A stretch of DNA of 64,000 nucleotides from Theionarchaea archaeon. Its GTDB lineage: Archaea; Methanobacteriota_B; Thermococci; Methanofastidiosales; SZ-28-30. A model generated the notes under the pieces. The model was not told where the DNA came from. It searched no databases and saw only the letters and a list, made by a program, of their open reading frames with translations. The stretch lies in NCBI GenBank assembly GCA_018992685.1, contig JACVGT010000018.1, positions 128,001 through 192,000 on the forward strand, in the 5' to 3' direction. This document shows, piece by piece, positions 35,225 through 64,000 of the stretch (positions are counted from its first letter, which is position 1; every line of letters begins with the position of its first letter). The translations under genes and the position numbers were made by a program.

Positions 35225-35241
35225 ATTGGATCACCTTCGCC

Positions 35242-36335: not shown

Positions 36336-36391
36336 TAAATGAAAAAAAGAAATGAAAAAAAAGAACGATTTCTTCCTTGATTATCTTAGGA

Positions 36392-46786: not shown

Positions 46787-46833
46787 GATACCACCAATTT
46801 GAACATGAATCCTCTCATTCTGACTGTTCTGGT

Positions 46834-47740: not shown

Positions 47741-48934
47741 ATGTGGTATTTCTACTCGCCGATCGTGGTTTTCGGGGAAGATGCCCTGGATCACCTGGAA
47801 ACCATTGAAGGAAAAAGATGCTTTATAGTGACAGACCCAGGTATCAAGAGCCTGGGATTGCTGGAAATCCTCACCAGAAAATTGGAACGATTGGGAAGGA
47901 GCTGGGAAGTCTTTTCTGATGTTGAACCTGATCCCAGAGAAGAGACTGTGTATAGAGCTGCTGAGCAATGCAAAAAATATAATCCAGATCTCATCATTGG
48001 AATTGGAGGAGGTTCGTCGCTTGATGCAGCAAAAGGTGTCTGGGTCTTATATGAACATCCAGAATTCAAGAGTGTGGACGAGATCCATCCTTTTCAGAAT
48101 TTGAATACTGGGAAGAAAGCCCGGTTGATCGCGATTCCTACGACCTCGGGAACAGGTGCTGAAACAACGTGGGCTGTGGTCATTACCAGAACCAAAGAAG
48201 GGAAAACCCTGAAACTTGAGCAGGGAAACAAAGGAGTTATCCCCACGTATGCTGTGGTTGACCCTGTTTTCACCAAGGGAATGCCTCCAGGCCTGACAGC
48301 TGGAACAGGGTTTGATGCGCTGGCCCACAGTATGGAGTGCTTGATATCCACCTGGCAGAACATGTTTTCGGATGCCTTGGCCATTGGAGCTATCCGTCTC
48401 ATTCTTGAGTATCTACCGCTGGCGGTGAAAGATGGAGATAATATGAAAGCTCGAGAAGCACTGCATAATGCAGCCAGCATGGGGGGACTGGCATTCGGAA
48501 ACGCACAGGTGACATTGGGGCACGCCATGGCTCATGCTCTGGGCGCTGTTTTTCATATTCCTCACGGCACTGCGGTGGGGTTGTGTCTGCCCTATGCCAT
48601 GGAATACTGCATTCACGATCCTGAAAGTGACAGCTCAATTGAGAAACTTGCCCTGACTGCAAAATCAGTGGGGGTTGCTCAATGGTCAGATGACAATTCT
48701 GGAGCTGCCGAGAAGCTCGTGGAGAAGGTGAAGTGGCTGCAGAAAGAGACGGGACTACCCGTCTCGTTGCAGGCCTTGGATGTCTCGAGGGAAGATTTGG
48801 ATGAGAACCTGGATACCCTCATCACCCTGTGTATGGAATCAGCCAGTACCGTGATGACTCCTCGGAATATTGGCGTCTCGGAATTTAGGAAGCTCTTTGA
48901 CTATATGTACTCTGGAAGGAAAGTCGACTTCTGA
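47741..48934 (+). CDS. Iron-containing alcohol dehydrogenase
   Basis: GGGSSLDAAK, PTTSGTGAE, DALAH, HAMAH, HG metal ligands; AGGAGG SD before the ATG at 47741. Confidence 0.93.
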   Translation: MWYFYSPIVVFGEDALDHLETIEGKRCFIVTDPGIKSLGLLEILTRKLERLGRSWEVFSDVEPDPREETVYRAAEQCKKYNPDLIIGIGGGSSLDAAKGVWVLYEHPEFKSVDEIHPFQNLNTGKKARLIAIPTTSGTGAETTWAVVITRTKEGKTLKLEQGNKGVIPTYAVVDPVFTKGMPPGLTAGTGFDALAHSMECLISTWQNMFSDALAIGAIRLILEYLPLAVKDGDNMKAREALHNAASMGGLAFGNAQVTLGHAMAHALGAVFHIPHGTAVGLCLPYAMEYCIHDPESDSSIEKLALTAKSVGVAQWSDDNSGAAEKLVEKVKWLQKETGLPVSLQALDVSREDLDENLDTLITLCMESASTVMTPRNIGVSEFRKLFDYMYSGRKVDF

Positions 48935-48944
48935 AGGTGATATC

Positions 48945-50774
48945 ATGAAAGGATTCCGCGGGAAGATCTTGGTGGTGGACTTGTCCTCAGAGACCATTAA
49001 GACTGAACTGGTGAATGAAGAGATTGCCAGGGCGTTTCTGGGTGGAGCTGGATATGCTGTTCGATACCTCTATGATCTTGTGGATGAGGGTACGGACCCT
49101 TTAGGGCCAGAAAATCCTCTTTTTTTCATGACGGGACCTCTCACCGGGACTCTTGCTCCTTCTGCAGGCCGGTGGGTGGTATGTGCCAAGTCGCCACTCA
49201 GCCAGATCTGGGGAGAATCCAACTGTGGAGGCTTTTTCGGAGCTGAGCTAAAATTCGCCGGCTTTGATGGCATTCTGGTGAAGGGAACTTCTGAACATCC
49301 TGTATACGTGTGGATTACCAACGATGAACAAGACATAATGGATGCATCTGATCTGTGGGGGAACGGTATCTATGAAACCCACTCCAGACTGAAACAAGCA
49401 GTTTCGGACAAACTAGCACGAGTAGCCTGTATCGGTCCTGCAGGGGAAAACCTGGTAAAATATGCCAGCATTGGATCTGAAGAACGAGCAGCGGGAAGGA
49501 CAGGGATGGGAGCTGTCATGGGCAGCAAGAACCTGAAGGCTGTGGTGGTCAGGGGAAAACTACGGGACATTGACCTCGCACATCCCGACCAGTATAATCA
49601 GCTGGCAAAGACCATCAAGAATGAGATCATGGATATCTTTACTGCCCAGATGATGGGTGAACTGGGAACGTCAGGTGGTGTTGATATGTACAATTATAGA
49701 GGACAGCTTCCGGTCAAGTACTGGACGAGAGGTGAATTTGACGGTGCCTATGATATCTCGGGTTCCACCATGAAAGAGACAATTCTGGTACGTCCCCGTC
49801 ACTGTTTTGCCTGCCCCATTGGGTGTGGGCGAGTGGTCAACGTGAAAGAAGGGAGATACAAGACCCCTGGTGAGGTGGAAGGGCCTGAGTACGAAACGGT
49901 GGCGGGATTTGGATCCCAACTCCTCAACAATAACCTAGAAGCCATAGCCAAGGCTAACTATCTGTGCAATGACTACGGGATTGACACCATCTCCTCAAGT
50001 GTTATTATTTCTTTTGTATACTACCTCGTGGAAAAAGGAATTGTTTCTGCTGGAGACCTTGATGGAATCAACCCCCGGTTTGGAGACTTTGATCCTGCAC
50101 TGGAGTTCATTTCCAGGATTGCCCAGCGAAAAGGAATTGGGAATCTGCTTGCTGAAGGTGCTCAAGCTGTTGGCAGCCACTTTGGCGTTTCCCGTGACGA
50201 GATTGCCACCGTTGACGGCATGGAGGTAACATATCATGATCTGCGCTCCACGTATGGGATGGCCATTGCGTATGCTACAGGGCCCCGAGGACCTGGGCAT
50301 AACTCCTGTGATATGTACATGACCTCCACGGGGCAGCCCTTTCCAGAACTGGACATTCCTGTTCCAGATCACTATGATGAGAGTTGTGTCATGACTGATG
50401 CCTGCGCCCGCCTCCAGGATTATCGAGCTTTCTACAGTACTGTGATCTTCTGCATGTTCTGCAACCCCGCTCCCTCTTCCATTGGTGACCTCATTTCGTT
50501 GGCCACTGGGTGGGACATTGGAATACCGGAGATCAAGATCATCGGAGAGCGAGTCTTCACCATGAAGAGGCTGTTCAACATCAAGATGGGCCTCTCTGGA
50601 GACTGGGACACCATTCCTGAGATATTGACAGCGCCGGTGTCTGATGGAGGGTCAGCAGGGAGGAGCCCCGACTGGAAAAAGATGCTCAGACAGTATTATG
50701 AATTTCGAAAATGGGACCCGAAGACGGGTATTCCTTCAAAAGAAAAACTGGAAGAACTGGGAATCCATGTGTAG
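48945..50774 (+). CDS. aor: Tungsten-dependent aldehyde:ferredoxin oxidoreductase family protein
   Basis: KSPL, ESNCGG, IGPAGEN, GRTGMGAVMGSKNLKA, CFACPIGC, GPEYET, GIDTIS. Confidence 0.93.
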   Translation: MKGFRGKILVVDLSSETIKTELVNEEIARAFLGGAGYAVRYLYDLVDEGTDPLGPENPLFFMTGPLTGTLAPSAGRWVVCAKSPLSQIWGESNCGGFFGAELKFAGFDGILVKGTSEHPVYVWITNDEQDIMDASDLWGNGIYETHSRLKQAVSDKLARVACIGPAGENLVKYASIGSEERAAGRTGMGAVMGSKNLKAVVVRGKLRDIDLAHPDQYNQLAKTIKNEIMDIFTAQMMGELGTSGGVDMYNYRGQLPVKYWTRGEFDGAYDISGSTMKETILVRPRHCFACPIGCGRVVNVKEGRYKTPGEVEGPEYETVAGFGSQLLNNNLEAIAKANYLCNDYGIDTISSSVIISFVYYLVEKGIVSAGDLDGINPRFGDFDPALEFISRIAQRKGIGNLLAEGAQAVGSHFGVSRDEIATVDGMEVTYHDLRSTYGMAIAYATGPRGPGHNSCDMYMTSTGQPFPELDIPVPDHYDESCVMTDACARLQDYRAFYSTVIFCMFCNPAPSSIGDLISLATGWDIGIPEIKIIGERVFTMKRLFNIKMGLSGDWDTIPEILTAPVSDGGSAGRSPDWKKMLRQYYEFRKWDPKTGIPSKEKLEELGIHV

Positions 50775-50876
50775 ATTGATCAGATTTTTCTTCTCTTTTC
50801 CTCTTTCACCCAACCGTATGACAGTGCCAGCACGCTATTCATGCCACCATAAGTATGATACTGAAGCAATGAACAG

Positions 50877-51581
50877 CTAGCGCCTGCGAGCCAGCTCCTC
50901 CATCAGCTCCATCTGAATCTCCTGGATCTGCAGGAGTCTCTGCCACTGATTTGCCAGCAGATGATCAATTTTTTCATGAAGATTCCGTATCTCCACTTCT
51001 GCTTTGAGGTTGACAACATAATCATGCTCTGACCGCAAACGATCCTTTGATTCCTGACGATTCTGACTCATCATGATAACAGGAGCCTGTATTGCAGCAA
51101 GACATGACAGCACAAGGTTCAGGAGAATGAAGGGATAAGGATCAAAATGTTTAGAAAGGAGCACCACACTGTTTATGCCGATCCATACAACCAGTATGCT
51201 AAAGAACATCATGATAAAAAGCCAGCTCCCAGCAAATTTGGCAAGTGCGTCTGAAAGGCGTTCTCCGAAGGTGAGGTTCTGTTGAAACTCAACATTAATA
51301 TCTCTGGATATGAGCTCCTGTTCTCTGAGACTTTTCATTACCTGTTCCTCCAATGAGGAGAGTTCGCCTTTCTCAGTTTCCAGGATCTCCCTCACATACT
51401 CTGATCTGAAGTGGTTGAGGTCAGAAAGACAGATAAATCCAGAGGGGGACCACTGAGGGTACTTCTTCTGGATAGTCTCAACCAGGGGGTCTCGAATGAG
51501 ATCTCCCGGGATGACCTCATCCGGATCTTTATGTTCTCCACAAATCCCACATACAATAGTCTTCTTATCTGCATCTGTCAT
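50877..51581 (-). CDS. DUF1003 membrane protein
   Basis: FDPYPFILLNLVLSCLAAIQAPVIMMSQNRQ signature. Confidence 0.92.
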   Translation of the reverse strand: MTDADKKTIVCGICGEHKDPDEVIPGDLIRDPLVETIQKKYPQWSPSGFICLSDLNHFRSEYVREILETEKGELSSLEEQVMKSLREQELISRDINVEFQQNLTFGERLSDALAKFAGSWLFIMMFFSILVVWIGINSVVLLSKHFDPYPFILLNLVLSCLAAIQAPVIMMSQNRQESKDRLRSEHDYVVNLKAEVEIRNLHEKIDHLLANQWQRLLQIQEIQMELMEELARRR

Positions 51582-51847
51582 ATTACCACCTCTGAAGGTT
51601 CCTGAATTTATACTCCCGGAGTCTAATAAATTCTTTCATCGCCATCCTCAATCCTCAAAACGGCAGGGCCTGCAGGAAGTTCCTCCTGTTGGGAACCCGT
51701 GGGCGTGAGGAAGACCACGTTGCAGGCGATGACAAAGATGTCTCCTGAATACTCAGGCTACAAGAATGATGGTACCTCGCTTTGATATCGAGGCCATCCT
51801 GCAGATTTTTAAGGTGTGACAGCAATACATAGGAGAATGGTGATGTC

Positions 51848-53587
51848 ATGACAGAGAAAAGACCAAAGTTGACTGGTGGCGACGTTCTTGTGCAGTGTTT
51901 GGTCCAGGAGGGAGCCAAGAAGGTTTTCGGTGTCCCTGGAGATCAATTATACCCTTTCTTGGATGCCATATACAAATCAGATGAAATCGATTTTGTTACC
52001 ACCCGGCATGAACAGGCTGCAGCCCACGCAGCAGATGCCTGGGCACGGGTAACGGGTAACCCAGGAGTCTGTGTGGGAACTGTGGGACCAGGTGCTGCAG
52101 ACCTGGTTCCTGGCGTGTATGTCGCATATGCAGATTCCATTCCTATGATTGTAATAACAGCTCAAAATCAATCCTGGAAGATACATCCTGATCATGGTTC
52201 TATGCAAGCTCTGGATCAGCAGTCCCTGTTTCATCCTATTACCAAGTGGAGAGTGCTAGTAAATCACTGGAAGAGAATTCCTTCTTTGGTCCAGTGGGCG
52301 TACCGGAATGCTGTGTCAGGCCGGCCGGGTCCTGTGCTCCTAGACTTTCCTGCAGATGTCTTGTTTGATGCGGGGTATCCTGAAGAGCTGGAGAGCCCTG
52401 TATTACCCCCTCACCAGTACAGAGCTGTAGCCTCCCCCGTGGGGAATCCTGAGGCCATACGAACGGCTGCACAGTTGCTGGTTGAAGCCAAGGCCCCTCT
52501 TATTCATGCAGGAGGAGGTGTCCTGCAATCTGAAGCATCAGATGAAATCGTTGGGCTCGCAGAACATTTGCAGGCCCCTGTCACCACGTCGCTGATGGCC
52601 AGAGGAGTCATACCTGAAGACCACGAGCTCTGTCTGCTTCCTGCAGGGTACGGTTCTCTGGCAGCACAGGTTGGAGCAGATATTGTCCTTGCCGTAGGAG
52701 GCAGGTTCGGTGATCTGGACTTTTGGGGAAAGCCTCCTGGATGGGGCGAACCTGATGAGCAGAGAGTGATCCAGATAGACATTGATCCCACCATGCACGC
52801 ATTGAACCGTCGCGTGGATCTGGCAATTACAGGAGATGCAAAGGTTACCCTCCGGCAGCTGCTGGAAGAAGTCAAGAAAATTCACCCAGAGAAGAAAATC
52901 CCCAGAGAAGACCTCGAGGATGATAGGGCAGCTCAGGAGGCGTGGCTGAATGATTTCAAGGAATTGAGTAACTCCAGCCAGGTACCTATCCACCCTTTGA
53001 CTGTGATCCAGAAAGTACGCGATTTCTTTCCCCGTTCAGCCATCAGTATCGTTGATGGAGGAAATACTGCAATCTGGGCCGTGTATCTCAATCGGATTTA
53101 TGAGCCCCGTACGTTCTTGTGGGCATCTGATTCTGGCCACCTGGGTACAGGTATTGGTTATGCTATCGGTGCCCAACTAGCCCGACCTGATAGGAGCGTG
53201 TACTGCATTACCAGTGACGGCTCAGTCATGTTTAACATACAGGAACTTGAAACTGCGGCGCGCCTGTGTGTTCCAATAGTCATTATCGTGGTTAATGATC
53301 AAGCCTACGGAATGATCAAAGCAGGCCAGAAGGCAGTGTGTGACTCCCGATTCATTGGAGTGGACTTCACTGATGCGAGATATGACAGGATTGCAGAAGC
53401 TATGGGATGCTATGGGGAGCGTATTCAGTCTCCTGATGAAGTCACCCCTGCACTGCAGAGAGCTGTAGATTCGGGCAAACCTGCCTTGCTGGATGTGGTT
53501 GTGGACAGTGATGTCAATTTAGAACCTCCTGATTTCAAGACCGTGGCTGCGCTCTGGTTGGAAGGCTGTGAAATGCCCGATGAGTAA
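51848..53587 (+). CDS. Thiamine-pyrophosphate-dependent enzyme (ALS / 2-hydroxyacyl-CoA lyase-like)
   Basis: RHEQAAAHAA, GPG, GRPGPV, GHLGTG, SDGS...VNDQAYGMI TPP motif; no ALS small subunit nearby. Confidence 0.88.
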   Translation: MTEKRPKLTGGDVLVQCLVQEGAKKVFGVPGDQLYPFLDAIYKSDEIDFVTTRHEQAAAHAADAWARVTGNPGVCVGTVGPGAADLVPGVYVAYADSIPMIVITAQNQSWKIHPDHGSMQALDQQSLFHPITKWRVLVNHWKRIPSLVQWAYRNAVSGRPGPVLLDFPADVLFDAGYPEELESPVLPPHQYRAVASPVGNPEAIRTAAQLLVEAKAPLIHAGGGVLQSEASDEIVGLAEHLQAPVTTSLMARGVIPEDHELCLLPAGYGSLAAQVGADIVLAVGGRFGDLDFWGKPPGWGEPDEQRVIQIDIDPTMHALNRRVDLAITGDAKVTLRQLLEEVKKIHPEKKIPREDLEDDRAAQEAWLNDFKELSNSSQVPIHPLTVIQKVRDFFPRSAISIVDGGNTAIWAVYLNRIYEPRTFLWASDSGHLGTGIGYAIGAQLARPDRSVYCITSDGSVMFNIQELETAARLCVPIVIIVVNDQAYGMIKAGQKAVCDSRFIGVDFTDARYDRIAEAMGCYGERIQSPDEVTPALQRAVDSGKPALLDVVVDSDVNLEPPDFKTVAALWLEGCEMPDE

Positions 53588-53598
53588 CTGGTGATGAG

Positions 53599-54615
53599 GT
53601 GAAGGCTGCAGTATTTTACGGAGAAAAGGATGTCCGCATTGAAGACGTGGATGATCCTTCTCCAGGACCGGGTGACGTCCTGCTCAGTCCCTTGTATTGT
53701 GGAATCTGTGGTACAGATGTTGATGCCTGGAAAACTGGCATGTATACACCTGGAGTGATACTGGGTCACGAATTCTCTGCCAGAGTTGTTGAATGCGGAC
53801 CTGGAGTGGACGGATGGAGCCCCGGGGACAACGTGGTAGTCAACTCGATTATCCCCTGTGGGACCTGTTCTTTCTGCGTACAAGGGAGGTACAGCCTGTG
53901 TGACAATGTGAAAATGCCGGGTATTACTGTCAATGGTGGTCTTGCTGAGCTTGTCTCCATCCCTGCTGATTCATTATTGCGGATGCCAAATTCTGTTACT
54001 GCAAGAGAAGCTGCCCTTACAGAACCACTGGCTGTTGTCCTGCACGGGTTCAATTTAATCAAAGGGGACTGGGGACTGGGCAACAAAGCACTGGTGACAG
54101 GTGCAGGCACCCTGGGATTACTTGCACTGCAGGTGGCTCACGCTGCAGGTGCTTCTCTTGTGGCAGTTTCTGAACCCAATTCCTCCAGGCGGGACACTGC
54201 AGTCGCTCTGGGTGCTGACATGGTAATTGATCCTGAAGTATCTAATGTGTGGGTGGAATTTGGAGAAAAGGCAGGTCACCTTCCCGATCTAGTGGTGGAA
54301 TGTTCAGGATCGGCCCTGGCTGCAACAGAAACGTTCTCTCTGGCCAAGAAAGGAGGGGTGGTCCTTGTCTTGGGAATATCTGAAGAGCCAGTAGAAGCAG
54401 ATTTCATGGCAGCAGTCCTTAACGAATTGACCTTTCACTTCAGTTACTGTGGATATTCAGAGTTTTCCGCCGCACTGGCTATGATTGAAAGGAAGATAGT
54501 CCGCGTAGGTGACTTAATCACTGAAATACCCCTGGACGATACCGTTGAGAAGGGATTTCAGAGGCTGGCAGATTCCCACTCTGACGTAGTAAAACTCTTG
54601 GTAAAAATATCATGA
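53599..54615 (+). CDS. Zinc-dependent alcohol dehydrogenase (MDR family)
   Basis: CGICGTD, GHEF, CGTCSFC...C structural Zn, GAGTLG. Confidence 0.92.
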   Translation: MKAAVFYGEKDVRIEDVDDPSPGPGDVLLSPLYCGICGTDVDAWKTGMYTPGVILGHEFSARVVECGPGVDGWSPGDNVVVNSIIPCGTCSFCVQGRYSLCDNVKMPGITVNGGLAELVSIPADSLLRMPNSVTAREAALTEPLAVVLHGFNLIKGDWGLGNKALVTGAGTLGLLALQVAHAAGASLVAVSEPNSSRRDTAVALGADMVIDPEVSNVWVEFGEKAGHLPDLVVECSGSALAATETFSLAKKGGVVLVLGISEEPVEADFMAAVLNELTFHFSYCGYSEFSAALAMIERKIVRVGDLITEIPLDDTVEKGFQRLADSHSDVVKLLVKIS

Positions 54616-55040
54616 ATGGAGGTGATTGTATTCTCTTAGGTTGTGAAGAGTATCTCGAAGAAGCTAAAAAGCGGGTGAATGAGGATTCTCAGTATGAAGA
54701 GCTAGCCAAGGAAATTAATGACTCCTATACCTTGGTAATGGAGGCAGAACCCACCAAGGGGGTTCCCAATTCCATGGTTCTGGGATTTCAGATCTCCAAT
54801 GGAAAAATGATTGATATCTGGCGCGGTGACAGGAAAACTGATTTCATCCTTTCAGCCAAATACGGAGACTTTGTGGACATCTTGATGGGAAACCTCAATG
54901 TCACCAAGGCGTTTGTCACCCGGAAACTGAAGATAAAAGGGTCTCTAGCCCGCATGCTGAAAACTTCAAAAGCCACAGAACGGTTTGTTGAAGTGCTGAA
55001 GGCTATTCCTACAGAATTTGAGGGAGACTACTGCAAATAA
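54612..55040 (+). CDS. SCP2 sterol/lipid-binding domain protein
   Basis: GNLNVTKAFVTRKLKIKGSL SCP2 motif; probable ATT start at 54630. Confidence 0.88.
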   Translation: MNGGDCILLGCEEYLEEAKKRVNEDSQYEELAKEINDSYTLVMEAEPTKGVPNSMVLGFQISNGKMIDIWRGDRKTDFILSAKYGDFVDILMGNLNVTKAFVTRKLKIKGSLARMLKTSKATERFVEVLKAIPTEFEGDYCK

Positions 55041-55058
55041 GAAATTAGAAAAAAAGAA

Positions 55059-55463
55059 TTAGTAAAACTGCGTATCGATCAACGTGATAGTGCGAACAAG
55101 CTCCTGGGCTGCTTTGACCGCCCGCATGACTTTGGCCATTTCACCTTTGAGCTTGAATTTGCCAGTCATCAATCCCTGGATGGGATCCAATTTCCCTTCC
55201 ACTAACTTGACATAGTTTGAGTAAGGACCTTCGTATACGAAGGCACTCTCTACCTCATCAGGAGACTGGAGGACTCTTCCATCGCGGGCCTCACCATGCC
55301 AGAGATCAATCCACAGAAATATGTCATGATCCAGCGGACCATCTGCTCTGATGATGAAGATGAAGTCACCTTCCCATGTGCTGGCAGCTTCACCATAAGC
55401 TGGGTTTTTGTTCAGCCTATCCATATATTCCTGACACCATTCTTCTGTTCCAAAAAGGGGCAT
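55059..55463 (-). CDS. SCP2 sterol/lipid-binding domain protein
   Basis: GKLDPIQGLMTGKFKLKGEM SCP2 motif; start taken as MPLFG. Confidence 0.9.
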   Translation of the reverse strand: MPLFGTEEWCQEYMDRLNKNPAYGEAASTWEGDFIFIIRADGPLDHDIFLWIDLWHGEARDGRVLQSPDEVESAFVYEGPYSNYVKLVEGKLDPIQGLMTGKFKLKGEMAKVMRAVKAAQELVRTITLIDTQFY

Positions 55464-55877
55464 TGAGTTCAACTCCTCTTTACGTATGTTGAGGTTGTTT
55501 CGATCTTCGTCTAATAAATGTTTGCAGTAATGACTCGCATCTTGGTCCCGCAGCGCCAGATTTATTTGATAGCCATCATGGTTTCTGATTCTGAGCTACA
55601 TTGATGATGTTCGAAGTTTCCCCTCAAGGCGGGCGTCCTTTCGAGACCAGACAACTCCAGACTGGCAAAAGGAAGGCAGATCTCTGATTCTCCTTTTCTA
55701 TTCGGCTTATATTTTGTGTTCTTTCTTTGATATATTCTCATATTCTCATGAAACGTTCAAGCTTTCCCGTGAATTCCTTCTTATGACGGTATTAGAAACA
55801 TCCTGATCATCTCACTATCGACGATACCATTAAATATATCATGTGTCCAAAGGAAGCCAGAAAAGAACCTGAAGAGG

Positions 55878-56252
55878 TTGCACATGAAAACTCACCACTT
55901 CACCTGTATCAAGTGTCCTTTAAGCTGCCAAATAGAACTCATTGAAGACAATGGCACTGTCCTGGAAATAAGAGGATGTACATGCAATCAAGGAGAACAA
56001 TACGCTCTTGACGAGTTCAGTAACCCTCTACGAATTGTCACCACTACTGTTCGCGTCACTGAGGGAATACTTCCTGTTGTCCCTGTTCGAAGCCAGGCCC
56101 CCCTGCCAAAATCATTGATCGCTGACTGTGTTAGTGTGTTGAATACTACGGAGGTTGAAGCACCGGTGACGTGTGGGCAGATCGTCTGCAGCAACATCCT
56201 GGACACAGGTATTGATGTAGTAGCGTCCCGAGATCTAGAAAGGAGGCATTAG
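55878..56252 (+). CDS. DUF1667 (CxxC) small subunit of a G3P-dehydrogenase-type complex
   Basis: CIKCPLSC, GCTCNQGEQYA..E..NPLRIVTTTV, VVASR. Confidence 0.88.
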   Translation: MHMKTHHFTCIKCPLSCQIELIEDNGTVLEIRGCTCNQGEQYALDEFSNPLRIVTTTVRVTEGILPVVPVRSQAPLPKSLIADCVSVLNTTEVEAPVTCGQIVCSNILDTGIDVVASRDLERRH

Positions 56253-56253
56253 T

Positions 56254-57813
56254 ATGTATGTTCTGGTTATTGATGCAGGGACCACAGGTATCAGGTCCAT
56301 TATTTTCGATAAAGAGACCACCGTCGTCTCACAAGCATATGAAGAAATCCCCCAGATTTACCCTGAGCCGGGCTGGTGTGAGCAAGATCCTGTTGTCATC
56401 TGGGAAAAATGCGTTAGTGTCCTCAAGCAGTCCTTGGAAAAGGCCAAACTATCCTCAACCGATATTGTGGCCATAGGAATGACCAATCAGAGATCCACCA
56501 GTTTGCTCTGGGACAAGAAAACAGGTGTTCCCATCCATAATGCTGTTACCTGGCAGGACACCAGAACAGCTCACTTATGTAAAGAAAAAGACAGAGCCTT
56601 CAAGATAAGGGCACTTCGAGGTGCAGGTTCTGCAGTGAAGCTTCTTGGTCAGATAATCAAGCCAATCAAGAGGAGCCGCACCGGAAAATTGCTGATGACG
56701 GTGTCGAACCTTTCCTTCAGCCCTGCTACTTCACTAGCCCATATTGCATGGGTTCTCAACAATGTAAATGGAGCACGAGAAAAAGCAGAAAAGGGGGATC
56801 TCCTTGCGGGTACCATTGATACCTGGTTAATCTGGAACCTTACAAGAGGCAGTGTTCACGCCACAGACTATAGCAATGCCAGTGCCACCAATATGTTTGA
56901 TACCTTCAGCCTGAAGTGGAGCACCCTGTTTCTGGGGCTATTTGACATTCCTCTTTCATTACTGCCTGAAGTCAGAGAATCCAGTGGAGATTTCGGCAAA
57001 ACCCATCCCGACCTGTTTGGCACTCCAATACCCATCACAGGTGTGTGTGCAGACCAGCAGGCTGCCCTCTTCGGGGAGACCTGTTTCAACGCAGGTGACG
57101 TGAAATGCACACACGGGACGGGCACCTTCATTGATATGAATGTGGGAGAAGAACCGGTCACCTCTCCTCACAAGCTTGTTCCCCTCATTGCCTGGTGTCT
57201 GAATAAGAAGGTGACCTACATGCTGGAAGGATATCTCGGGGCAACAGGTTCTGCTGTCCAGTGGCTGTGTGATGGACTGCAAATCGTCAACGCTCCCTCA
57301 GAAACGGATGATATCGCCTGTTCCATAGGAGACACAGGAGGAGTCTACCTTGTACCCGCCTTCCAGGGGCTGACCTCTCCATACTGGGACCCTCTGGCCA
57401 GGGGAGTTGTGGTAGGACTGACCCGGGGAACCAGAAAGGAACACGTGGTCAGAGCAACTCTGGAGGCCATTGCATACTGCTGCAGAGATATCATGGTAGC
57501 TATGGAAGAGGATTCTGGAGTGACCATCAAGACCATAAAGGCGGATGGAAATGCTTCCACCAACAATTTCATAATGCAATTCATGGCGGATCTCCTGGAT
57601 GTGGAGATCGAGAGACCTGCAATGCTGGAGTCTACAGCACTGGGAGCAGCATTCCTTGCTGGATTGTCTGTAGCCTACTGGAAATCACAGGAAGAGCTCA
57701 AGAAATACCGGAAAATAGATTCAAGATTCCAACCTGCAATGGACCACGCAGAAAGAGAGAAACTGTATAAAAAATGGAAAAAAGCAGTGAAAAGATCATT
57801 TGACTGGGCTTAG
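56254..57813 (+). CDS. glpK: FGGY-family glycerol kinase, GK5-like
   Basis: DAGTTG, TNQRST, WQDTR, ADQQAALFG, KCTHGTGTF, PAFQGL..PYWD, ADG; carries an extra amphipathic insert. Confidence 0.88.
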   Translation: MYVLVIDAGTTGIRSIIFDKETTVVSQAYEEIPQIYPEPGWCEQDPVVIWEKCVSVLKQSLEKAKLSSTDIVAIGMTNQRSTSLLWDKKTGVPIHNAVTWQDTRTAHLCKEKDRAFKIRALRGAGSAVKLLGQIIKPIKRSRTGKLLMTVSNLSFSPATSLAHIAWVLNNVNGAREKAEKGDLLAGTIDTWLIWNLTRGSVHATDYSNASATNMFDTFSLKWSTLFLGLFDIPLSLLPEVRESSGDFGKTHPDLFGTPIPITGVCADQQAALFGETCFNAGDVKCTHGTGTFIDMNVGEEPVTSPHKLVPLIAWCLNKKVTYMLEGYLGATGSAVQWLCDGLQIVNAPSETDDIACSIGDTGGVYLVPAFQGLTSPYWDPLARGVVVGLTRGTRKEHVVRATLEAIAYCCRDIMVAMEEDSGVTIKTIKADGNASTNNFIMQFMADLLDVEIERPAMLESTALGAAFLAGLSVAYWKSQEELKKYRKIDSRFQPAMDHAEREKLYKKWKKAVKRSFDWA

Positions 57814-57815
57814 AA

Positions 57816-58799
57816 CTATTCTGAATCAGGGGAGAAGGCATAGTGGACAGTTATCGTGCCATCCTCTCCAATAAGTGCAGTGATTCCGCTGTGCCTGGTT
57901 TCATTCCCCATGAATGCATCATACCAGAGAACCTGCCAATTCTCTTCTCCGACCTGAGTGACTACCACAGCCGGGAGCCGCGCCTTGGCCAGGAATGCCT
58001 GTATTTTTTCATCCTTTCTGGAATAGGAGACTGCTTTCTCAGGAGTGTCCACTGGAGGATCAGAAACAGTGTCCAATAGGGGCAGAGTCTCAACAGTCCG
58101 CGTTTCCAGGATGCTCTGGGAAAGAGTGTTCACGGTGTATATGTAGTATATCCGGGCTTTCTCATCCTCTCTCTGGACCACTACTGACCATATGTGGGGT
58201 AAAGCAGTGGGGAGACCATAGCCCTCTTCTCCTGCCTCTTTTTGGACAGTGGCGAGGGCCACTCCTTTTTCGTAGTACCGTATTCCAAAAAAAGTGGCTA
58301 CAAGACAGAGAGATACCACCGCGAGGACCTTCACGGTCTTTCTATCCTTGCGATAGTGACCAACTACAGCAGCCAAAAGGAAAATGGCGAAGAAGACTGG
58401 ATCAAAGAAACTGGTGATATCGAACACAGTTCTCGAATCTGAGAATGGCCATCGTATAGCCATGCTCCACGGAGTCAGTAAATCAAGGAAAAGGTGACCA
58501 AAAGCTCCGATCATGAATAGACAGAGCATCAAGAGGACCTTGTTCTTCTGAAAGTTGGACAGTTGGACAGTCATCACGAGATACAGCAGTCCCAGAACAA
58601 GAGCCCCAACAATAACTCCCACAATCGAGTGAGTGACTCCTCTGTGGTACTGGAATACAGCATCTATGCCCCCCAGAATGGAGACACCGTCAAAGTCAGG
58701 GAGCATGCATGCCGCTACAAAGAGCACCCAGGATTTCTTATCCAGGTTCAGCCCTCTGCCAATCACGATTCCTACCAGCCCATGAGATATGAGGTCCAT
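57816..58799 (-). CDS. Membrane-bound metal-dependent hydrolase (YdjM-like)
   Basis: MDLISHG, LPDFD, HRGVTHS, HLFLDLL. Confidence 0.88.
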   Translation of the reverse strand: MDLISHGLVGIVIGRGLNLDKKSWVLFVAACMLPDFDGVSILGGIDAVFQYHRGVTHSIVGVIVGALVLGLLYLVMTVQLSNFQKNKVLLMLCLFMIGAFGHLFLDLLTPWSMAIRWPFSDSRTVFDITSFFDPVFFAIFLLAAVVGHYRKDRKTVKVLAVVSLCLVATFFGIRYYEKGVALATVQKEAGEEGYGLPTALPHIWSVVVQREDEKARIYYIYTVNTLSQSILETRTVETLPLLDTVSDPPVDTPEKAVSYSRKDEKIQAFLAKARLPAVVVTQVGEENWQVLWYDAFMGNETRHSGITALIGEDGTITVHYAFSPDSE

Positions 58800-58942
58800 T
58801 CATGAATCACCTGTATATGGTCAATCCAGAGTCTCAATTGTTAAATACTTTCTCACTATCACGGAAATAATCAAAATGTCTGCACAACACAGAACCATCA
58901 ATATATTGACGTGTTGTACCTTGAGCTTTCTTCCTCGAAAGC

Positions 58943-60199
58943 TCATTCCCCTAGTCTAATAACATCAAAGTGCAGTTCCTCATTCACATTTTCAAGTACA
59001 GCTTTTTCCATTTGCACCTTGACCATTTCAGGAGGTTTGACAATCCTCTCCTTTTTTTCCTTGACTACTTCCCCTTGTGAGGATATGATAACCTTCACAT
59101 TCTTCTCAATTTCCTTTACACGTAGGTAAAACACAATGTCTTCCTTGGGATGTCCTCGGATTATCTGAGGAACAACATAACTAACATTTCGTCCCTTTTT
59201 TACTGAAACGACGGTATCCCTTCTCTCTACGGTTCCTTTAACGCAGGCTGCAGCACCTTTACCTGCGACTTCAGCCGCCTGAGATACGTCATCCACCAGG
59301 TCGTGGACATGCACCACATTTCCACAGGCGAATATCCCAGGAACAGAGGTTTCCATCGACTCATCTACCACCGGCCCTCCTGTGGTCAAGTCCATTTCAA
59401 TGGTAGCTTTCCTGGATAACTCGTTTTCTGGAATCAGTCCCACAGACAACAACACGGTATCACACGGAATATACCGTTCAGTTCCAGGTACCGGTTTGAA
59501 TCTCTCATCAACTTGCGCCACTGTCACTCCCTCGACTCTCTCCTTCCCTTTGATGTCAACGATCGTATGTGAAACATGCAAGGGTATCCCATAATCCTCC
59601 AGACACTGAACCACATTTCTGGTCAACCCCCCAGCCCTTGGCAGAATCTCGTATACTCCCTCCACGTCTCCGCCTTCCAGAGAAAATCGCCGAGCCATGA
59701 TTAACCCCACATCGCCTGAACCCAGAACAACCACTTTCTTTCCTGGTAGTAGTCCTTCCATGTTGATGAACCGCTGAGCAACCCCTGCAGTATAAATGCC
59801 TGATGGCCTCTCCCCCGGAATCAAGATCTGTGAGCGTGTTCTTTCCCTGCATCCCATGGCCAGTATTACGGCTTTCGCCTTCATGGTGACCACCCCCTCT
59901 TCGGGATTCACAACAGTCACCTTTTTGTCAGAGTCCAGGTCCACCACCATGCTATTTAGCATAACGCTGATTCCTGTTTTCTCAATCTCCTCAATGTATC
60001 GCTGGGCATATTCAGGACCTGTCAACATCTCGCCAAAGACAAAATTCCCAAACCCATCATGAATACACTGAGGCAGGATACCCCCCAGCTCGAAATCACG
60101 TTCCAGAATTACCACCTGTTGAGCTCCAGCCCTGTATGCACTCAGAGCAGCCGCCAACCCCGCAGGACCGCCTCCAATGACCACAATATCCACATTCAT
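58943..60199 (-). CDS. NAD(P)/FAD-dependent oxidoreductase, partner of a G3P dehydrogenase
   Basis: GGGPAG, GGILPQCIH.GFG, MGCRER, GSGDVG, GNVVHVHDLVD. Confidence 0.9.
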   Translation of the reverse strand: MNVDIVVIGGGPAGLAAALSAYRAGAQQVVILERDFELGGILPQCIHDGFGNFVFGEMLTGPEYAQRYIEEIEKTGISVMLNSMVVDLDSDKKVTVVNPEEGVVTMKAKAVILAMGCRERTRSQILIPGERPSGIYTAGVAQRFINMEGLLPGKKVVVLGSGDVGLIMARRFSLEGGDVEGVYEILPRAGGLTRNVVQCLEDYGIPLHVSHTIVDIKGKERVEGVTVAQVDERFKPVPGTERYIPCDTVLLSVGLIPENELSRKATIEMDLTTGGPVVDESMETSVPGIFACGNVVHVHDLVDDVSQAAEVAGKGAAACVKGTVERRDTVVSVKKGRNVSYVVPQIIRGHPKEDIVFYLRVKEIEKNVKVIISSQGEVVKEKKERIVKPPEMVKVQMEKAVLENVNEELHFDVIRLGE

Positions 60200-61953
60200 G
60201 AGACCACCTTTGTTTTGCTGGCCACAATGTATGATCCTCCACCCTTTTTCGTAACTCTCTCCAGTGGTAAGCCCTGCTCTCTGGACAGTATTTCAGCTAC
60301 CCTGGGTCCACAGAACCCACCCTGACACCTTCCCATCCCCGCCCTGGTTCTCCTCTTGACTGCGTCCATAGTCACAGCTGGTATTGACCCATGGATTGCA
60401 TTAACAATCTCAGCTTCAGTAACCTGCTCACATCGACACACTATGTGTCCATATCGTGAATTTTTCTTGATCAGTTCTGTCTTTTCTTCTGCAGACAGTT
60501 CTTTAAACACTGGAGGTGCCTTCCTCACTGGGTTAAACCCTTCCTTCTCCTTCAAAGGAACACCTGATTTTCTCAATATGTCCACAACCCTCTTGGCAAT
60601 CACAGGAGCAGCTGTCAACCCGGGGGATTGTATGCCTGCTGCATGGATGAATCCCCTTACCCTGGAAGGTCCAATCACGAAATCTTCAGTGTACGTGGCA
60701 GCTCTCACGCCGGCAAAATATGTAATAACAGAATTCAAGGGAAATTCGGGGACTGCTGGATGGTATTTCTCCACCATGGTCTCAAGTTCACTCTTGCTCA
60801 CAGATGTATCCTCCCTGTCTGAGACTTCCACTGCTGTGGGTCCCCACAACATGTTGCCGTCCACGGTCTCTAGGACCCCGCCTCCCTTGGTATGGGGATC
60901 CTGAGGGAATCGTAACTCGCTAACCTGGTGTGTAAGATACCCCTCAGTCTTATCAAAGAGCAAGATACTTCCTTTCCGGGGATGGATTGTGTACTCTCTG
61001 GCCCCTGCCATGCCGGCAATCACATCCGCATACACACCTGCTGCATTGATCACGGTCCTACAGGAAATGTCCCCTCTGGAGGTTGCTACTTTCCTGACAG
61101 CATCATTCTCTACCATAATGTCGAGCACTTCAGTATCTAGAACAAAGGTGACTCCATTCTCGACAGCGTTTTCTGCCAGGGCAATTGTGATCTTATAGGG
61201 ACAGGTTACACCATACCCAGGCATTAATATGGCTTTTACTGCCCTTTTCGTTATGTGGGGCTCCATCTGTAGCAGTTCCTTTCTGTTCACAACGCGGGGA
61301 GTATCTCCCACACTTTTGCCCCTGTGAGCCACAAAGTATGGTACTATGTACGTGAGAATAATTCGGGAAAGAAAAGAAGGAACCCACTGGGGCAGACTCT
61401 CCTCTGTTAATAAGATTAAGAGCCCATTCTTCTCATAGGGAACATCCAGATCTTCTGCAATCTTTTGGTATAGAGGCCAGGCTTCAGCACACAATTCTTT
61501 CTTAAGAGTGCCGGATTTCTCTCCGACCCCGGTGTGGATCTGTCCATTATTGGCTTTGGTTGCCCCACATGCCACATCTGATTCTTTTTCCACCACCACA
61601 ACATCTAGATTATACCGGGACAGCTCCCTGGCAACAAAACAGCCAATGACCCCTGCCCCTATGATGACTACATCTGTTTTTCCTGGAAGTTTCATACGTA
61701 TTCCAGAATCTCTGAAAAAGGACTGAGCCTCATCTTTACGCTCTGTGATATCTCTGCTTTTAGTATTATTGACAATCCCCCTCACTCCTTTCAGGCTGCC
61801 CGCATAGTGACCTATCTGCACCACGTCGTCCCATGTGTCAGCTAATCCAGCAATGGTGACAATTCTATCTTCTACAGAAACTTTAATAGACGATAGATTC
61901 TTTTTTTCCAGGAATTTTTCTAATTTTTTCTTTATTTTTTCATTTGTGGTCAT
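60196..61953 (-). CDS. FAD-dependent glycerol-3-phosphate dehydrogenase-like protein with N-terminal BON and C-terminal BFD-like [2Fe-2S] domains
   Basis: N-terminal IKVSVEDRIVTIAG...KGVRGIVNN (BON); GAGVIG, ATKAN, SPGLTAAP; CRCE...RAGMGRCQGGFC. Confidence 0.88.
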   Translation of the reverse strand: MTTNEKIKKKLEKFLEKKNLSSIKVSVEDRIVTIAGLADTWDDVVQIGHYAGSLKGVRGIVNNTKSRDITERKDEAQSFFRDSGIRMKLPGKTDVVIIGAGVIGCFVARELSRYNLDVVVVEKESDVACGATKANNGQIHTGVGEKSGTLKKELCAEAWPLYQKIAEDLDVPYEKNGLLILLTEESLPQWVPSFLSRIILTYIVPYFVAHRGKSVGDTPRVVNRKELLQMEPHITKRAVKAILMPGYGVTCPYKITIALAENAVENGVTFVLDTEVLDIMVENDAVRKVATSRGDISCRTVINAAGVYADVIAGMAGAREYTIHPRKGSILLFDKTEGYLTHQVSELRFPQDPHTKGGGVLETVDGNMLWGPTAVEVSDREDTSVSKSELETMVEKYHPAVPEFPLNSVITYFAGVRAATYTEDFVIGPSRVRGFIHAAGIQSPGLTAAPVIAKRVVDILRKSGVPLKEKEGFNPVRKAPPVFKELSAEEKTELIKKNSRYGHIVCRCEQVTEAEIVNAIHGSIPAVTMDAVKRRTRAGMGRCQGGFCGPRVAEILSREQGLPLERVTKKGGGSYIVASKTKVVS

Positions 61954-62107
61954 AGTAGTCCCTCCAGCAACCTCAGATCACCAAGAACGGGCTAAGATTT
62001 TAAATGTTTCTGTGTACTGAAGCGTCTTTTCTAGGAATTGAGCAGGAAGCAGCATCATAGCTCTGTGTCCACAGCAATCCACTGAATCCTTCAGCAGAAT
62101 CTATACT

Positions 62108-63310
62108 CTATTGATTCATGCTTTCAAAAACGATTTCTGACAGATCACGCGATTCAGAATTCCTGGTCCTCTTAAAAGCAATTTTGCACGCAGGGCAGGC
62201 AGTGACCACAGTGTCAGCAAGCTCACACAACTCACTGTCCCTAGCTCGCAGCAGTGTGACAGAAAGTTCAGGATTGGTCATGGCCAGGAGCCCACCTATT
62301 CCGCAGCATCGAGTGTGCTCCCTGGTCAGAGGAGGCTCCCTCACGGATACGCCCGGGATAGCTTCCAAGACCCTTCTTGGCTGTTCAATGATATGCAATT
62401 TCCTGGCCAGGACACAGGGATCATGATACACCAGGTCTTTGTTGAGCTCTTTCAACTGAATCTTCCCTTGTTCAATCAATTCCAGAAAATACTCAGACGT
62501 GTGCATCACGTCAGCTTTCACGGGGAATCCTGCTTCAGCATATACGTCCTTGAAGGTATACACACACTCAGGACAGCTACAGATCATCTTCTTACAGCCA
62601 CTTTTCTCAATGATATCTGCATTACGGGCTGCGAATTCCTTGAAATCATTTTCAAACCCCAAGAGATTCAAAGGAGCCCCGCAGCACCATTCCTCGGGTA
62701 ACGTAGTCACAGCAATTCCTACTTTCTCGAGAATCTTCATGGTGGTCTGGGCAATGACTCGTTCCTTGTTCAGCACCGTGCACCCAGCAACGTACAGTAT
62801 ATCTGCTTCTCGTGGCTCCAGCCCCAGGGAAGTCCTGGAATTCTGATAGATGGTGTGGCTGTTGACAATCTGATCTCTAATGCCCATCAGCATCTCTGGA
62901 GCCAGATTCCTGTCCACCAGATCTCTTCTCACCCCTATTAAGAGATCATCCACAGAAAAATCAAAAGGACACCACTGCTGGCATGCAGAACATGCAGCAC
63001 ATGCATACATCAAATCCACGGCATCTTGAGATGAAACCCGGCCCATCTCCAGTAAATAAGCTATCCGTGCCCTGCCTGCGGGTGCATATGTTTCAGACTT
63101 GGCTGCCTGCAACACGGGGCAATCAAATCGGCACATATTAGGACAGAGTGCACACTTCAAAATGTCATCCACGTGTGCCTTCGTTTTGCCATCTGGTAGA
63201 TACTTCTTCTTTGCTGTGAGAAACCTGACCACAACTTCCTTTTGCGTAGAAAGGGCCAACCTTGAGATAGCTTTTGCAATCCAGAAATACTTTTTGAATT
63301 CTTCCAGCAT
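62108..63310 (-). CDS. (Fe-S)-binding CCG-domain protein (GlpC/GlcF/HdrD-like)
   Basis: CALCPNMCRFDCP, CAACSACQQWCP, two CCG motifs, YHDPC, TACPAC. Confidence 0.9.
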   Translation of the reverse strand: MLEEFKKYFWIAKAISRLALSTQKEVVVRFLTAKKKYLPDGKTKAHVDDILKCALCPNMCRFDCPVLQAAKSETYAPAGRARIAYLLEMGRVSSQDAVDLMYACAACSACQQWCPFDFSVDDLLIGVRRDLVDRNLAPEMLMGIRDQIVNSHTIYQNSRTSLGLEPREADILYVAGCTVLNKERVIAQTTMKILEKVGIAVTTLPEEWCCGAPLNLLGFENDFKEFAARNADIIEKSGCKKMICSCPECVYTFKDVYAEAGFPVKADVMHTSEYFLELIEQGKIQLKELNKDLVYHDPCVLARKLHIIEQPRRVLEAIPGVSVREPPLTREHTRCCGIGGLLAMTNPELSVTLLRARDSELCELADTVVTACPACKIAFKRTRNSESRDLSEIVFESMNQ

Positions 63311-63311
63311 G

Positions 63312-64000
63312 TTATAACCCCATTTTTCCCGGATTCATTACATACTCAGGATCCAATGCTTTCTTTATCGTTCTCAGAACTTCAAGAGATGATCCCAGTT
63401 CCTGTTGTACCCACGGGCTCCGCAAGATTCCAATGCCGTGGTGATGACTTATGGAACCTCCAGCGTGCAAGCACGCTTTCATGGCAGCATCCCATACAGT
63501 CTGGTAGAAATCTGTAGGACTCCCAGTCATGGGTGTTCCCCCGAAAGTGAAATAGAAACACACACCCTGGGGATAGAAGTGTGAGGCGTGGGCAGATGCG
63601 ATAATCACCCCGTCAATTGATTTCATTGCAGAAATCATGGATTGATATAACTCCATGGATTTATCCCACATGACAGAGACTTCAATGGTGTCAAAAACAA
63701 CATCTCGGGGGGTGAATTCTGAGATTTCCTTCACATTGAAGCGGGTCTCTAACCAGTGGGCTGCGGGTCCCTCACCTACTGAGATTCCGCCGTGCTCTGT
63801 GCATACTGCATGAGAGACGGATCCTTCAAGGTCTACCAGCTCTCTGTCTCCTTCCAGAATCAGAATCAAAACACACTTTCCTCTTGTCTTCTTTGTACGG
63901 TAAAAATGCCTTTCTGTCTCCACCTGATCATATAATCGGGCCACAGCAGGAAAGATGCCTCTTCTCAAGATGATTCGTATGGATTCTAATGCCTCTTCCA
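63312..64000 (-). CDS. FAD-linked oxidase, alkyl-dihydroxyacetonephosphate synthase (AGPS)-like; C-terminal part, 5' end beyond the window
   Basis: DTIEVS..W, SAHASHFYPQGVCFYFTF, SISHHHGIG, ALDPEYVMNPGK; the frame stays open to the window edge. Confidence 0.85.
   Translation of the reverse strand, partial: EEALESIRIILRRGIFPAVARLYDQVETERHFYRTKKTRGKCVLILILEGDRELVDLEGSVSHAVCTEHGGISVGEGPAAHWLETRFNVKEISEFTPRDVVFDTIEVSVMWDKSMELYQSMISAMKSIDGVIIASAHASHFYPQGVCFYFTFGGTPMTGSPTDFYQTVWDAAMKACLHAGGSISHHHGIGILRSPWVQQELGSSLEVLRTIKKALDPEYVMNPGKMGL

Follow-up and report, generated by a model that had tools for sequence, protein, structure and literature searches.

Introduction

In Thermococcus, proteins with DAO and BFD domains, a Pyr_redox_2 domain and DUF1667 form a trio known as the ‘GlpTk-NOX-MOX’ set (PMC11962113). 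The trio was characterised in October 2026 in Pyrococcus furiosus as FngABC, an electron-bifurcating enzyme that co-oxidises glycerol 3-phosphate (G3P) and reduced ferredoxin and thereby reduces NAD+; the authors speculate that the glycerol originates from membrane-lipid turnover (PMC13689815). Homologues of AGPS (EC 2.5.1.26) have also been noticed in archaea before, where they were ‘surprisingly ... detected in archaeal MAGs’ (metagenome-assembled genomes; PMC11868695). Here, we analyse a stretch of 64,000 nucleotides from a Theionarchaea archaeon (contig JACVGT010000018.1, positions 128,001 to 192,000; G000:C1:128001-192000 in our numbering; hereafter the window), in which an AGPS-like flavoprotein (AGPSL), an iron-sulfur protein with two CCG domains (hereafter CCG), a three-part FngABC-type dehydrogenase and an FGGY kinase are encoded together. 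Comparison of gene neighbourhoods shows these genes to form a conserved module, which we tentatively interpret as a catabolic system for glycerol carrying a substituent on its sn-1 oxygen.

The genome (G000) comprises 3.03 Mb in 45 contigs and is 91% complete. The closest named relatives of the window proteins are from Theionarchaea MAGs (83% identity), and the metagenomes that contain the stretch are of marine sediment origin. An earlier note, made from the letters of the window, had proposed anaerobic degradation of glycerol ether lipids by these genes and their neighbours, and the genes it named are all present at the place given, as judged from an open reading frame (ORF) listing and Pfam and NCBIfam scans. 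Our literature searches returned no account of the function of an archaeal AGPS-like protein, of an AGPS-like/CCG pairing, of an FngA variant with a BON domain or of the altered kinase described below; the supplementary context tables of PMC13689815 (S1, S2 and S5), which cover 4,273 FngA homologues, may list AGPS-like/CCG neighbours, and the words BON, FAD-binding and FAD-linked are missing from its main text. Likewise, the searches found neither a pathway by which alkylglycerols or ether lipids are catabolised anaerobically nor an O2-independent enzymatic breakdown route.

Results

A conserved six-gene module

The surroundings of AGPSL were compared in 80 genome loci, taken from one-genome-per-species contigs, and in 80 metagenome loci, which were seeded with a Zixibacteria-type AGPSL homologue. 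A neighbouring gene was scored as present when tblastn gave E ≤1e-10 (1e-8 in the metagenome set) and at least 50% query coverage (Table 1). Since many loci are short contigs, the missed neighbours include truncations. The counted CCG homologues lie directly downstream of AGPSL, and many of the metagenome misses are contig ends.

Table 1. Genes found near AGPSL
Gene	Genome loci	Metagenome loci
CCG	77/80	62/80
FGGY kinase	58/80	39/80
FngA	25/80	36/80
FngB	22/80	28/80
FngC	20/80	25/80
YdjM, SCP2a, SCP2b	1/80 each (L003, same genus)	0/80
Zn-ADH	5/80 (4 are ~30% identical, at unrelated positions)	0/80
TPP enzyme, DUF1003, AOR, Fe-ADH	0/80	0/80

MAGs of Thermoplasmatota, Bathyarchaeota and ‘Euryarchaeota’ carry the order AGPSL-CCG-FngA-FngB-FngC-kinase on a single strand. 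A metagenome group with 42-47% identity has the order AGPSL-CCG-FngA-kinase-FngB-FngC, with an alpha/beta hydrolase upstream in 13 loci. The Asgard order is AGPSL-CCG-kinase-alpha/beta hydrolase, preceded by a protein of ~492 residues; the hydrolase was found in 33 Asgard loci and the ~492-residue protein in 34. The latter is encoded directly upstream of AGPSL on the same strand (for example L031:8424-9902 and L049:8386-9864, besides 32 other Asgard loci) and gave no match in Pfam, NCBIfam or the PDB.

At the level of gene content, these comparisons show a conserved six-gene module consisting of AGPSL, CCG, FngA with a BON domain, FngB, FngC and an FGGY kinase, and all of its parts belong to known families. 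AGPSL is thus co-conserved with the kinase and the three-part dehydrogenase across phyla, whereas no such co-conservation was found for SCP2 and AOR, which the earlier note had also included in its suggested synteny search. In a separate search of 41 genomes, AGPSL matched 10 at E ≤1e-40, and matches of at least 70% identity were confined to G000, G001, G019 and G013; those of 28-37% identity were treated as other proteins of the VAO family.

AGPSL resembles AGPS in sequence, fold and active-site residues

The whole AGPSL gene encodes 495 residues and extends to about window-equivalent position 64799 (G000:C1:191315-192799); its remainder was read from the genome contig beyond the window. Given that the next gene is a divergent subtilase, the cluster ends beyond AGPSL. 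In a phmmer search of all PDB sequences, AGPSL best matched AGPS of Dictyostelium (2uuu; 2e-66, 227.8 bits) and of guinea pig (4bby; 223.3 bits), while other VAO-type enzymes scored lower (D-lactate dehydrogenase, D-LDH, 8jdc, 137.1 bits; glycolate oxidase, 127.2 bits; LctD, 123.4 bits). The glcD model TIGR00387 reached 42.1 bits on the C-terminal 228 residues, with a cut-off of 567.9. An AlphaFold model of AGPSL (mean pLDDT 78.9) retrieved AGPS at all of Foldseek ranks 1-30 (TMq 0.80-0.83, E ~1e-35), compared to TM 0.72-0.76 and E ~1e-31 for D-LDH folds; identity with AGPS in the structural alignment is ~28%.

In HMMER alignments, R288, Y416 and H452-454 of AGPSL correspond to Arg419, Tyr578 and the HHH motif (His615-617) of guinea-pig AGPS, that is, to residues and a loop that we take to be catalytic there. 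The positions of Arg419 and Tyr578 are confirmed by PDB mutant entries (4bc7, ‘Arg419His mutant’; 4bca, ‘Tyr578Phe mutant’). All of these residues are invariant across 16 AGPSL homologues of 52-83% identity, whose names assign them to Theionarchaea, Thermoplasmatota, Bathyarchaeota, Zixibacteria and the Asgard groups (Hod-, Hermod-, Heimdall-, Odin- and Promethearchaeota). The flavoprotein therefore groups with AGPS, as the earlier note had supposed, and we reject identity as a D-lactate or glycolate dehydrogenase in view of scores and motifs.

An iron-sulfur protein as predicted electron partner

The constant neighbour of AGPSL stays under the cut-offs of the NCBIfam models for TfrB, LdhH and GlpC. 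When both alignments were supplied, structure prediction placed AGPSL and CCG in a complex with ipSAE of 0.92, 0.92 and 0.93 in three runs, while three controls all gave 0.00; the runs agreed in at least 92% of contacts, and the pLDDT of the partners was at least 89. In calibration, 58/80 solved complexes and 2/110 mismatched pairs reached the mark, which is only roughly valid here as our own alignments were used, and similarity to flavoprotein/Fe-S complexes of solved structure may account for part of the result. The predicted interface is made up of CCG residues 51-63 and includes the invariant Cys53, Cys56 and Cys60, with the invariant Cys64 just outside.

The predicted pairing points to electron exchange between FAD and Fe-S clusters. 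Constant adjacency together with predicted binding would therefore entail net electron transfer, which AGPS chemistry can do without.

FngA and the kinase differ from those of relatives without AGPSL

FngA of the window matches Pfam DAO (3.8e-70) and Fer2_BFD (5e-15), has GlpO (4x9m) as best PDB match and is ~40% identical to Thermococcaceae-like homologues. At its N-terminus, Pfam identifies a BON domain with 32.2 bits (cut-off 27), and ~11 extra hydrophobic residues are located near 190-215. The BON-containing N-terminal region is shared by 25/25 AGPSL-linked FngA proteins of the genome loci, and in the distant FngA proteins from metagenomes the alignment starts at residue 1-5. Pfam detected BON in 4/5 further FngA proteins (three over the cut-off and one at 25.8, with a cut-off of 27) and did not find it in the remaining one. 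By contrast, BON is absent from FngA of 7/7 Thermococcaceae-like relatives (family f5), all without AGPSL, given that their alignments begin only at residue 83-93. The DUF1667 protein has an N-terminal CxxCxxxC...C motif matching the FngC cysteines named in PMC13689815. The FngA homologues of two relatives (G002:C142:1636-3366 and G038:C11:1234202-1235689) each contain one in-frame stop, TGA and TAA, respectively, which could be a sequencing error, a pseudogene or recoding.

The window kinase has FGGY_N and FGGY_C domains, scores 507 bits with GlpK of S. aureus (3g25), barely meets TIGR01311 (594.1; cut-off 590.35) and exceeds NF000756 (632.6; cut-off 498). Glycerol specificity of GlpK involves Arg83, Glu84, Tyr135, Asp245 and Phe270 (PMC3245297). 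The corresponding signature of the window kinase is R-S-A-D-F instead of R-E-Y-D-F; three of the five residues are kept, while Glu84 is replaced by Ser81 and Tyr135 by Ala158. The earlier note had called it a glycerol-kinase homolog; with two of five binding residues lost, it is, by signature, not a canonical glycerol kinase. A second GlpK-like kinase was not found in the genome. The nearest cluster in the ESM atlas is auto-named ‘Glycerol kinase 5’ (chordates; score 0.98), which we regard as a lead only.

The change at Glu84 and Tyr135 is common to all AGPSL-linked GK5-like kinases, and the canonical combination of Glu plus Tyr occurs in none of the 97 AGPSL-linked kinases (0/58 in genome loci, 0/39 in metagenome loci), although 5/28 xylulokinase-like ones retain Glu at the first position, without the Tyr segment. 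The linked kinases fall into several classes (Table 2). The ‘HRS/HRG’ proteins are ~24% identical to the window kinase, and their genes sit between FngA and FngB in a more distant form of the module that is probably bacterial (metagenome loci L128-L174). In Thermococcaceae-like relatives without AGPSL, 3/3 aligned kinases are canonical and have no insert.

Table 2. Classes of AGPSL-linked kinases
Class	Genome loci	Metagenome loci
Window type, QR[S/A] (or LRS), long insert, no Tyr	21/58	5/39
Shorter form of the window type (Asgard, 40% identity)	9/58	1/39
Xylulokinase/AI-2-kinase-like, under all cut-offs	28/58	4/39
Separate ‘HRS/HRG’ class, hydrophobic insert	0/58	23/39
Other	0/58	6/39

Relative to solved GlpK structures, the window kinase has ~26 extra residues between 113 and 150. 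This segment of 38 residues contains 10 Lys or Arg and 1 Asp or Glu and has the highest hydrophobic moment of the protein (0.68). The earlier note had described membrane-type inserts in the kinase and the dehydrogenase. While both additions are real, transmembrane inserts are ruled out by hydropathy: no 19-residue window of either protein reaches a Kyte-Doolittle value of 1.6. Judged by their sequences, then, the AGPSL-linked kinase and FngA both differ from their counterparts in relatives without AGPSL.

Cluster layout and a genus-specific periphery

Table 3 lists the genes of the cluster. Around the conserved core lies a second layer that, on the comparisons made here, is genus-specific and comprises the YdjM hydrolase, two SCP2 proteins, Zn-ADH, the thiamine pyrophosphate (TPP) enzyme, AOR and Fe-ADH.

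Table 3. Features of the cluster (positions in the window)
Feature	Position	Strand	Basis
Fe-ADH (iron-containing alcohol dehydrogenase)	47702-48934	+	Pfam Fe-ADH, ADH_Fe_C
AOR (tungsten-type aldehyde:ferredoxin oxidoreductase)	48870-50774	+	Pfam AFOR_N/C
DUF1003 membrane protein, probably unrelated	50877-51581	-	Pfam, hydropathy; absent from the earlier note
TPP enzyme, acetolactate-synthase / 2-hydroxyacyl-CoA-lyase superfamily	51848-53587	+	Pfam TPP_enzyme_N/M/C
Zn-ADH (Zn-dependent alcohol/polyol dehydrogenase)	53599-54615	+	Pfam ADH_N, ADH_zinc_N; under all NCBIfam cut-offs
SCP2 lipid-carrier-type protein a	54612-55040	+	Pfam SCP2 4.6e-12; start overlaps Zn-ADH end
SCP2 lipid-carrier-type protein b	55059-55472	-	Pfam SCP2 2.6e-9
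FngC-type DUF1667 [4Fe-4S] subunit	55878-56252	+	Pfam DUF1667; Cys motif
GK5-like FGGY kinase	56254-57813	+	Pfam, NCBIfam, alignment to GlpK structures
YdjM-family membrane metal hydrolase, 327 residues	57816-58799	-	Pfam YdjM; hydropathy
FngB-type subunit, FAD/NAD(P) oxidoreductase (called ‘NOX’ in Thermococcus)	58943-60199	-	Pfam Pyr_redox_2; synteny
FngA-type FAD/[2Fe-2S] G3P dehydrogenase subunit, N-terminal BON	60196-61953	-	Pfam DAO, Fer2_BFD, BON
HdrD/GlpC-like iron-sulfur protein (Fer4 dicluster and two CCG)	62108-63310	-	Pfam CCG, Fer4_8
AGPS-like FAD flavoprotein (AGPSL), C-terminal 228 residues inside the window	63312-64000 (window end)	-	Pfam FAD_binding_4 and FAD-oxidase_C

Membership of these peripheral genes in a conserved pathway, which the earlier note had assumed, is unsupported: they adjoin the core only within the same genus or were not found next to it at all. 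In a separate genome search, G001, a genome of the same genus, was the only one in which the TPP-ZnADH-SCP2 genes adjoined the module; locus L003 ends just after the Zn-ADH gene, and the TPP gene follows in that genome. Nearness of AOR carries little weight, since the genome holds five AOR copies. A second AOR gene (604 residues, L002:9713-11527) lies ~9.7 kb past the window end. Two of the four SCP2 genes of the genome sit in the module, which is mildly notable. The YdjM hydrolase has five hydrophobic segments and a soluble C-terminal half. For the TPP enzyme, the scores of the PDB matches BbmA, ALS, OXC and HACL lie between 213 and 267 bits, glyoxylate carboligase scores alike, and every NCBIfam equivalog cut-off was missed. 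The genome also encodes acyl-CoA and hydroxyacyl-CoA dehydrogenases.

Further features lie elsewhere in the window. Just upstream of the Fe-ADH/AOR pair and in divergent orientation, 46154-47214 (minus strand) encodes one protein with a V4R domain and one of the Roadblock/LC7 type, which may form a small-molecule-sensing regulator pair. The segment 42578-45940 encodes a protein of 549 residues with a B12-binding domain and a weak match to methylaspartate mutase E, followed on the same strand by an NAD synthase and an ATP-grasp protein of the D-Ala-D-Ala-ligase type. Positions 30001-38000 have a lower G+C content (0.36-0.42, compared to 0.45-0.50 elsewhere) and may be an island or foreign DNA.

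Discussion

We tentatively propose that the module catabolises a glycerol with a substituent on the sn-1 oxygen, for example 1-O-alkylglycerol; substrate, direction and the role of CCG are here inferred from homology and gene context. Taken together, four observations suggest an O1-substituted glycerol phosphate that is handled at a membrane surface, and not free glycerol: the target of AGPS chemistry is C1 of a glycerone-phosphate ester, two hydroxyl-binding residues are lost from the kinase, the additions to kinase and FngA look surface-active, and hydrolases recur beside the module, which SCP2 genes join in this genus. BON on FngA, the amphipathic kinase insert, SCP2, the membrane hydrolase and the alpha/beta hydrolases may be read as hints of membrane or lipid association. 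Archaeol would be unfit as a substrate because its C2 is etherified, which blocks oxidation to a derivative of dihydroxyacetone phosphate (DHAP). With archaeol excluded, only 1-O-monoalkyl glycerol ethers of the bacterial or eukaryotic type would fit, and 1-O-alkylglycerol set free in the sediment from the ether lipids of bacterial or eukaryotic detritus appears to be the most plausible substrate.

In the proposed route, the kinase would phosphorylate the O-substituted glycerol at the membrane surface, and FngABC with its BON domain would oxidise C2, or else free G3P. AGPSL/CCG would then act on the C1-O bond of the glycerone- or glycerol-phosphate moiety by flavin chemistry of the AGPS type, with the difference from AGPS that electrons would move to or from the Fe-S partner. 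The resulting triose phosphate could enter glycolysis, and an alcohol or aldehyde would be released. In this genus, the released chain might be handled by SCP2, ADH and AOR, and AOR could supply reduced ferredoxin for FngABC. The involvement of CCG could be reconciled with such a reaction in two speculative ways: the flavin may oxidise the carbon beside the ether oxygen to give a hemiacetal, which falls apart, or alkyl-G3P may be dehydrogenated before an elimination of the AGPS type.

The alkylglycerol pathway of the earlier note is thus strengthened by the AGPS-like residues and by the linked, altered kinase, and is weakened in that it gave no role to the CCG partner and that the dehydrogenase is homologous to the free-G3P enzyme FngABC (PMC13689815). 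Its full scheme, including ADH, AOR and TPP enzyme, takes up only a minor share of the limited probability we grant to an O1-substituted substrate and is by itself improbable.

The most specific form of the proposal would make AGPSL/CCG an O2-independent, ether-bond-cleaving flavoenzyme acting on 1-O-alkyl-G3P or alkyl-DHAP and the GK5-like kinase an alkylglycerol kinase, which together with the BON-containing FngABC would constitute the first anaerobic ether-lipid catabolic pathway. We consider this form rather doubtful. We know of no gene assigned to alkylglycerol kinase activity. In anoxic sediments, alkyl glycerol ethers are plentiful and long-lived, and they serve as biomarkers; if the proposal were true, a pathway for their degradation would occur widely among archaea of sediments (Asgard, Thermoplasmatota, Bathyarchaeia and Theionarchaea) and in some bacteria, and would be related to eukaryotic AGPS and GK5.

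Several observations weigh against an O1-substituted, lipid-derived substrate. AGPSL lacks the N-terminal 130-180 residues of eukaryotic AGPS (the alignments begin at residue 131 of 2uuu and 180 of 4bby) as well as its internal insert, which leaves a gap of ~25-35 residues past query residue 295; the missing parts might form the lipid tunnel of AGPS. The modelled fold agrees with the AGPS-like sequence result but cannot alone separate AGPS from D-LDH. Predicted docking of CCG via its first Cys cluster implies net redox chemistry, a characteristic of 2-hydroxy-acid dehydrogenases that are soluble, for example GlcDF. The class of the linked kinase varies, with 28/58 being xylulokinase/AI-2-kinase-like in the genome loci and 23/39 forming a separate class in the metagenome loci. 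No lipase, transporter or SCP2 gene was found to be conserved with the core across phyla. The role of BON in lipid binding is general background on the domain and not an observation on these proteins. Finally, homologues of FngABC and FngAB mostly use polyols besides glycerol, according to the abstract of PMC13689815.

These points make a soluble polyol-phosphate function a serious rival, even though we judge it somewhat unlikely. According to this explanation, the module would serve the ordinary breakdown of a soluble polyol, be it glycerol or another: the kinase would produce a polyol phosphate, FngABC would oxidise it with ferredoxin and NAD, and AGPSL-CCG would be a second dehydrogenase (GlcD/GlcF type, for polyol phosphates or 2-hydroxy substrates) that delivers electrons to another acceptor (a disulfide, sulfur or a membrane carrier), with ADH, AOR, TPP enzyme and SCP2 as unrelated neighbours. 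FngABC is a proven G3P enzyme (PMC13689815), many of the linked kinases are xylulokinase-like, and the predicted complex of a VAO flavoprotein with CCG matches dehydrogenases of the GlcDF/LdhH type (NCBIfam matches). The lack of co-conservation of the peripheral genes and the multiple AOR copies likewise favour it. However, a soluble polyol phosphate would not account for the invariance of the AGPS-specific residues (the equivalents of Tyr578 and HHH) or for a glcD score of 42 against a cut-off of 568, and it gives no clear reason for having two dehydrogenases of one product in one operon. Moreover, the glycerol signature is kept in 0/97 linked kinases, and FngA carries BON only where AGPSL is present.

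Alternatively, the genes could serve to make or remodel alkyl ether lipids of the non-isoprenoid type. AGPSL would then convert acyl-DHAP and fatty alcohol to alkyl-DHAP, AOR and ADH would reduce fatty acids to the alcohols, SCP2 would carry these, and CCG would keep the flavin oxidised in a reducing cytoplasm. AOR and ADH are able to run in the reducing direction, all catalytic residues of AGPS are kept and SCP2 genes are nearby. Homologues of AGPS in archaeal MAGs have, in addition, been read as possible ether-lipid genes (PMC11868695). We nonetheless regard this alternative as improbable, given that neither an acyltransferase (GNPAT) nor a fatty acyl reductase was found in the window cluster or among the annotated conserved neighbour families, and that AGPSL is constantly accompanied by a kinase and a G3P oxidoreductase of the catabolic type. 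For its normal archaeal lipids, the genome has a glycerol 1-phosphate (G1P) dehydrogenase (434 bits; cut-off 413), and the plasmalogen pathway is described as lacking evidence in Archaea in PMC13012113 (preprint version).

Supply or interconversion of the glycerol-phosphate backbone, with AGPSL-CCG linking DHAP to a stereoisomer such as G1P and, in Asgard archaea, substituting for a missing G1P dehydrogenase, is very improbable: 3/3 Asgard carriers of the module (G041, G042 and G043; loci L049, L062 and L038) are indeed without a G1P dehydrogenase over the cut-off (best 129 bits; cut-off 413) and the tested Bathyarchaeota and Thermoplasmatales genomes do have one, but both the dehydrogenase and the module are present in the window genome and in the carriers among Thermoplasmatota and Bathyarchaeota, the kinase would be superfluous, and the comparison covers five genomes only.

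Even if the substrate of the module is soluble, AGPSL/CCG would represent an uncharacterised redox enzyme family across archaeal phyla, the FngABC family would gain a variant with a BON domain, and ‘AGPS’ annotations in archaea should not be taken as ether-lipid synthesis. The occurrence of AGPS-like and GK5-like genes side by side in Asgard archaea also bears on the origin of the eukaryotic ether-lipid enzymes.

Comparison with known systems

Four described systems come closest to the module. GlpK and eukaryotic glycerol kinase 5 share the FGGY fold with the window kinase, which keeps the equivalents of Arg83, Asp245 and Phe270 and differs from GlpK by Ser in place of Glu84, Ala in place of Tyr135 and a basic insert of ~26 residues. 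With FngABC of P. furiosus, the window set has in common the three subunit families, their cofactor motifs and adjacency to a gene of the glycerol-kinase type; it differs by BON and the ~11 hydrophobic residues of FngA, by the non-canonical kinase and the added AGPSL-CCG pair, and by the missing glycerophosphodiesterase gene in the window cluster. GlcDEF and D-LDH systems with CCG subunits (GlcF, LdhH and GlpC) likewise combine a VAO flavoprotein with a protein containing Fer4 and two CCG domains, and the first Cys cluster of CCG is predicted to lie at the flavoprotein interface here as well. However, AGPSL has HHH at the place where the AGPS structures have it too, it is closer to AGPS than to D-LDH, and its glcD score is far under the cut-off. 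AGPS itself (2uuu and 4bby) shares with AGPSL the VAO-type fold and the equivalents of Arg419, Tyr578 and HHH. AGPS is redox-neutral without a dedicated electron partner and belongs to a context of acyltransferase and fatty acyl reductase, whereas AGPSL pairs with the CCG iron-sulfur protein and has a kinase and FngABC as its neighbours.

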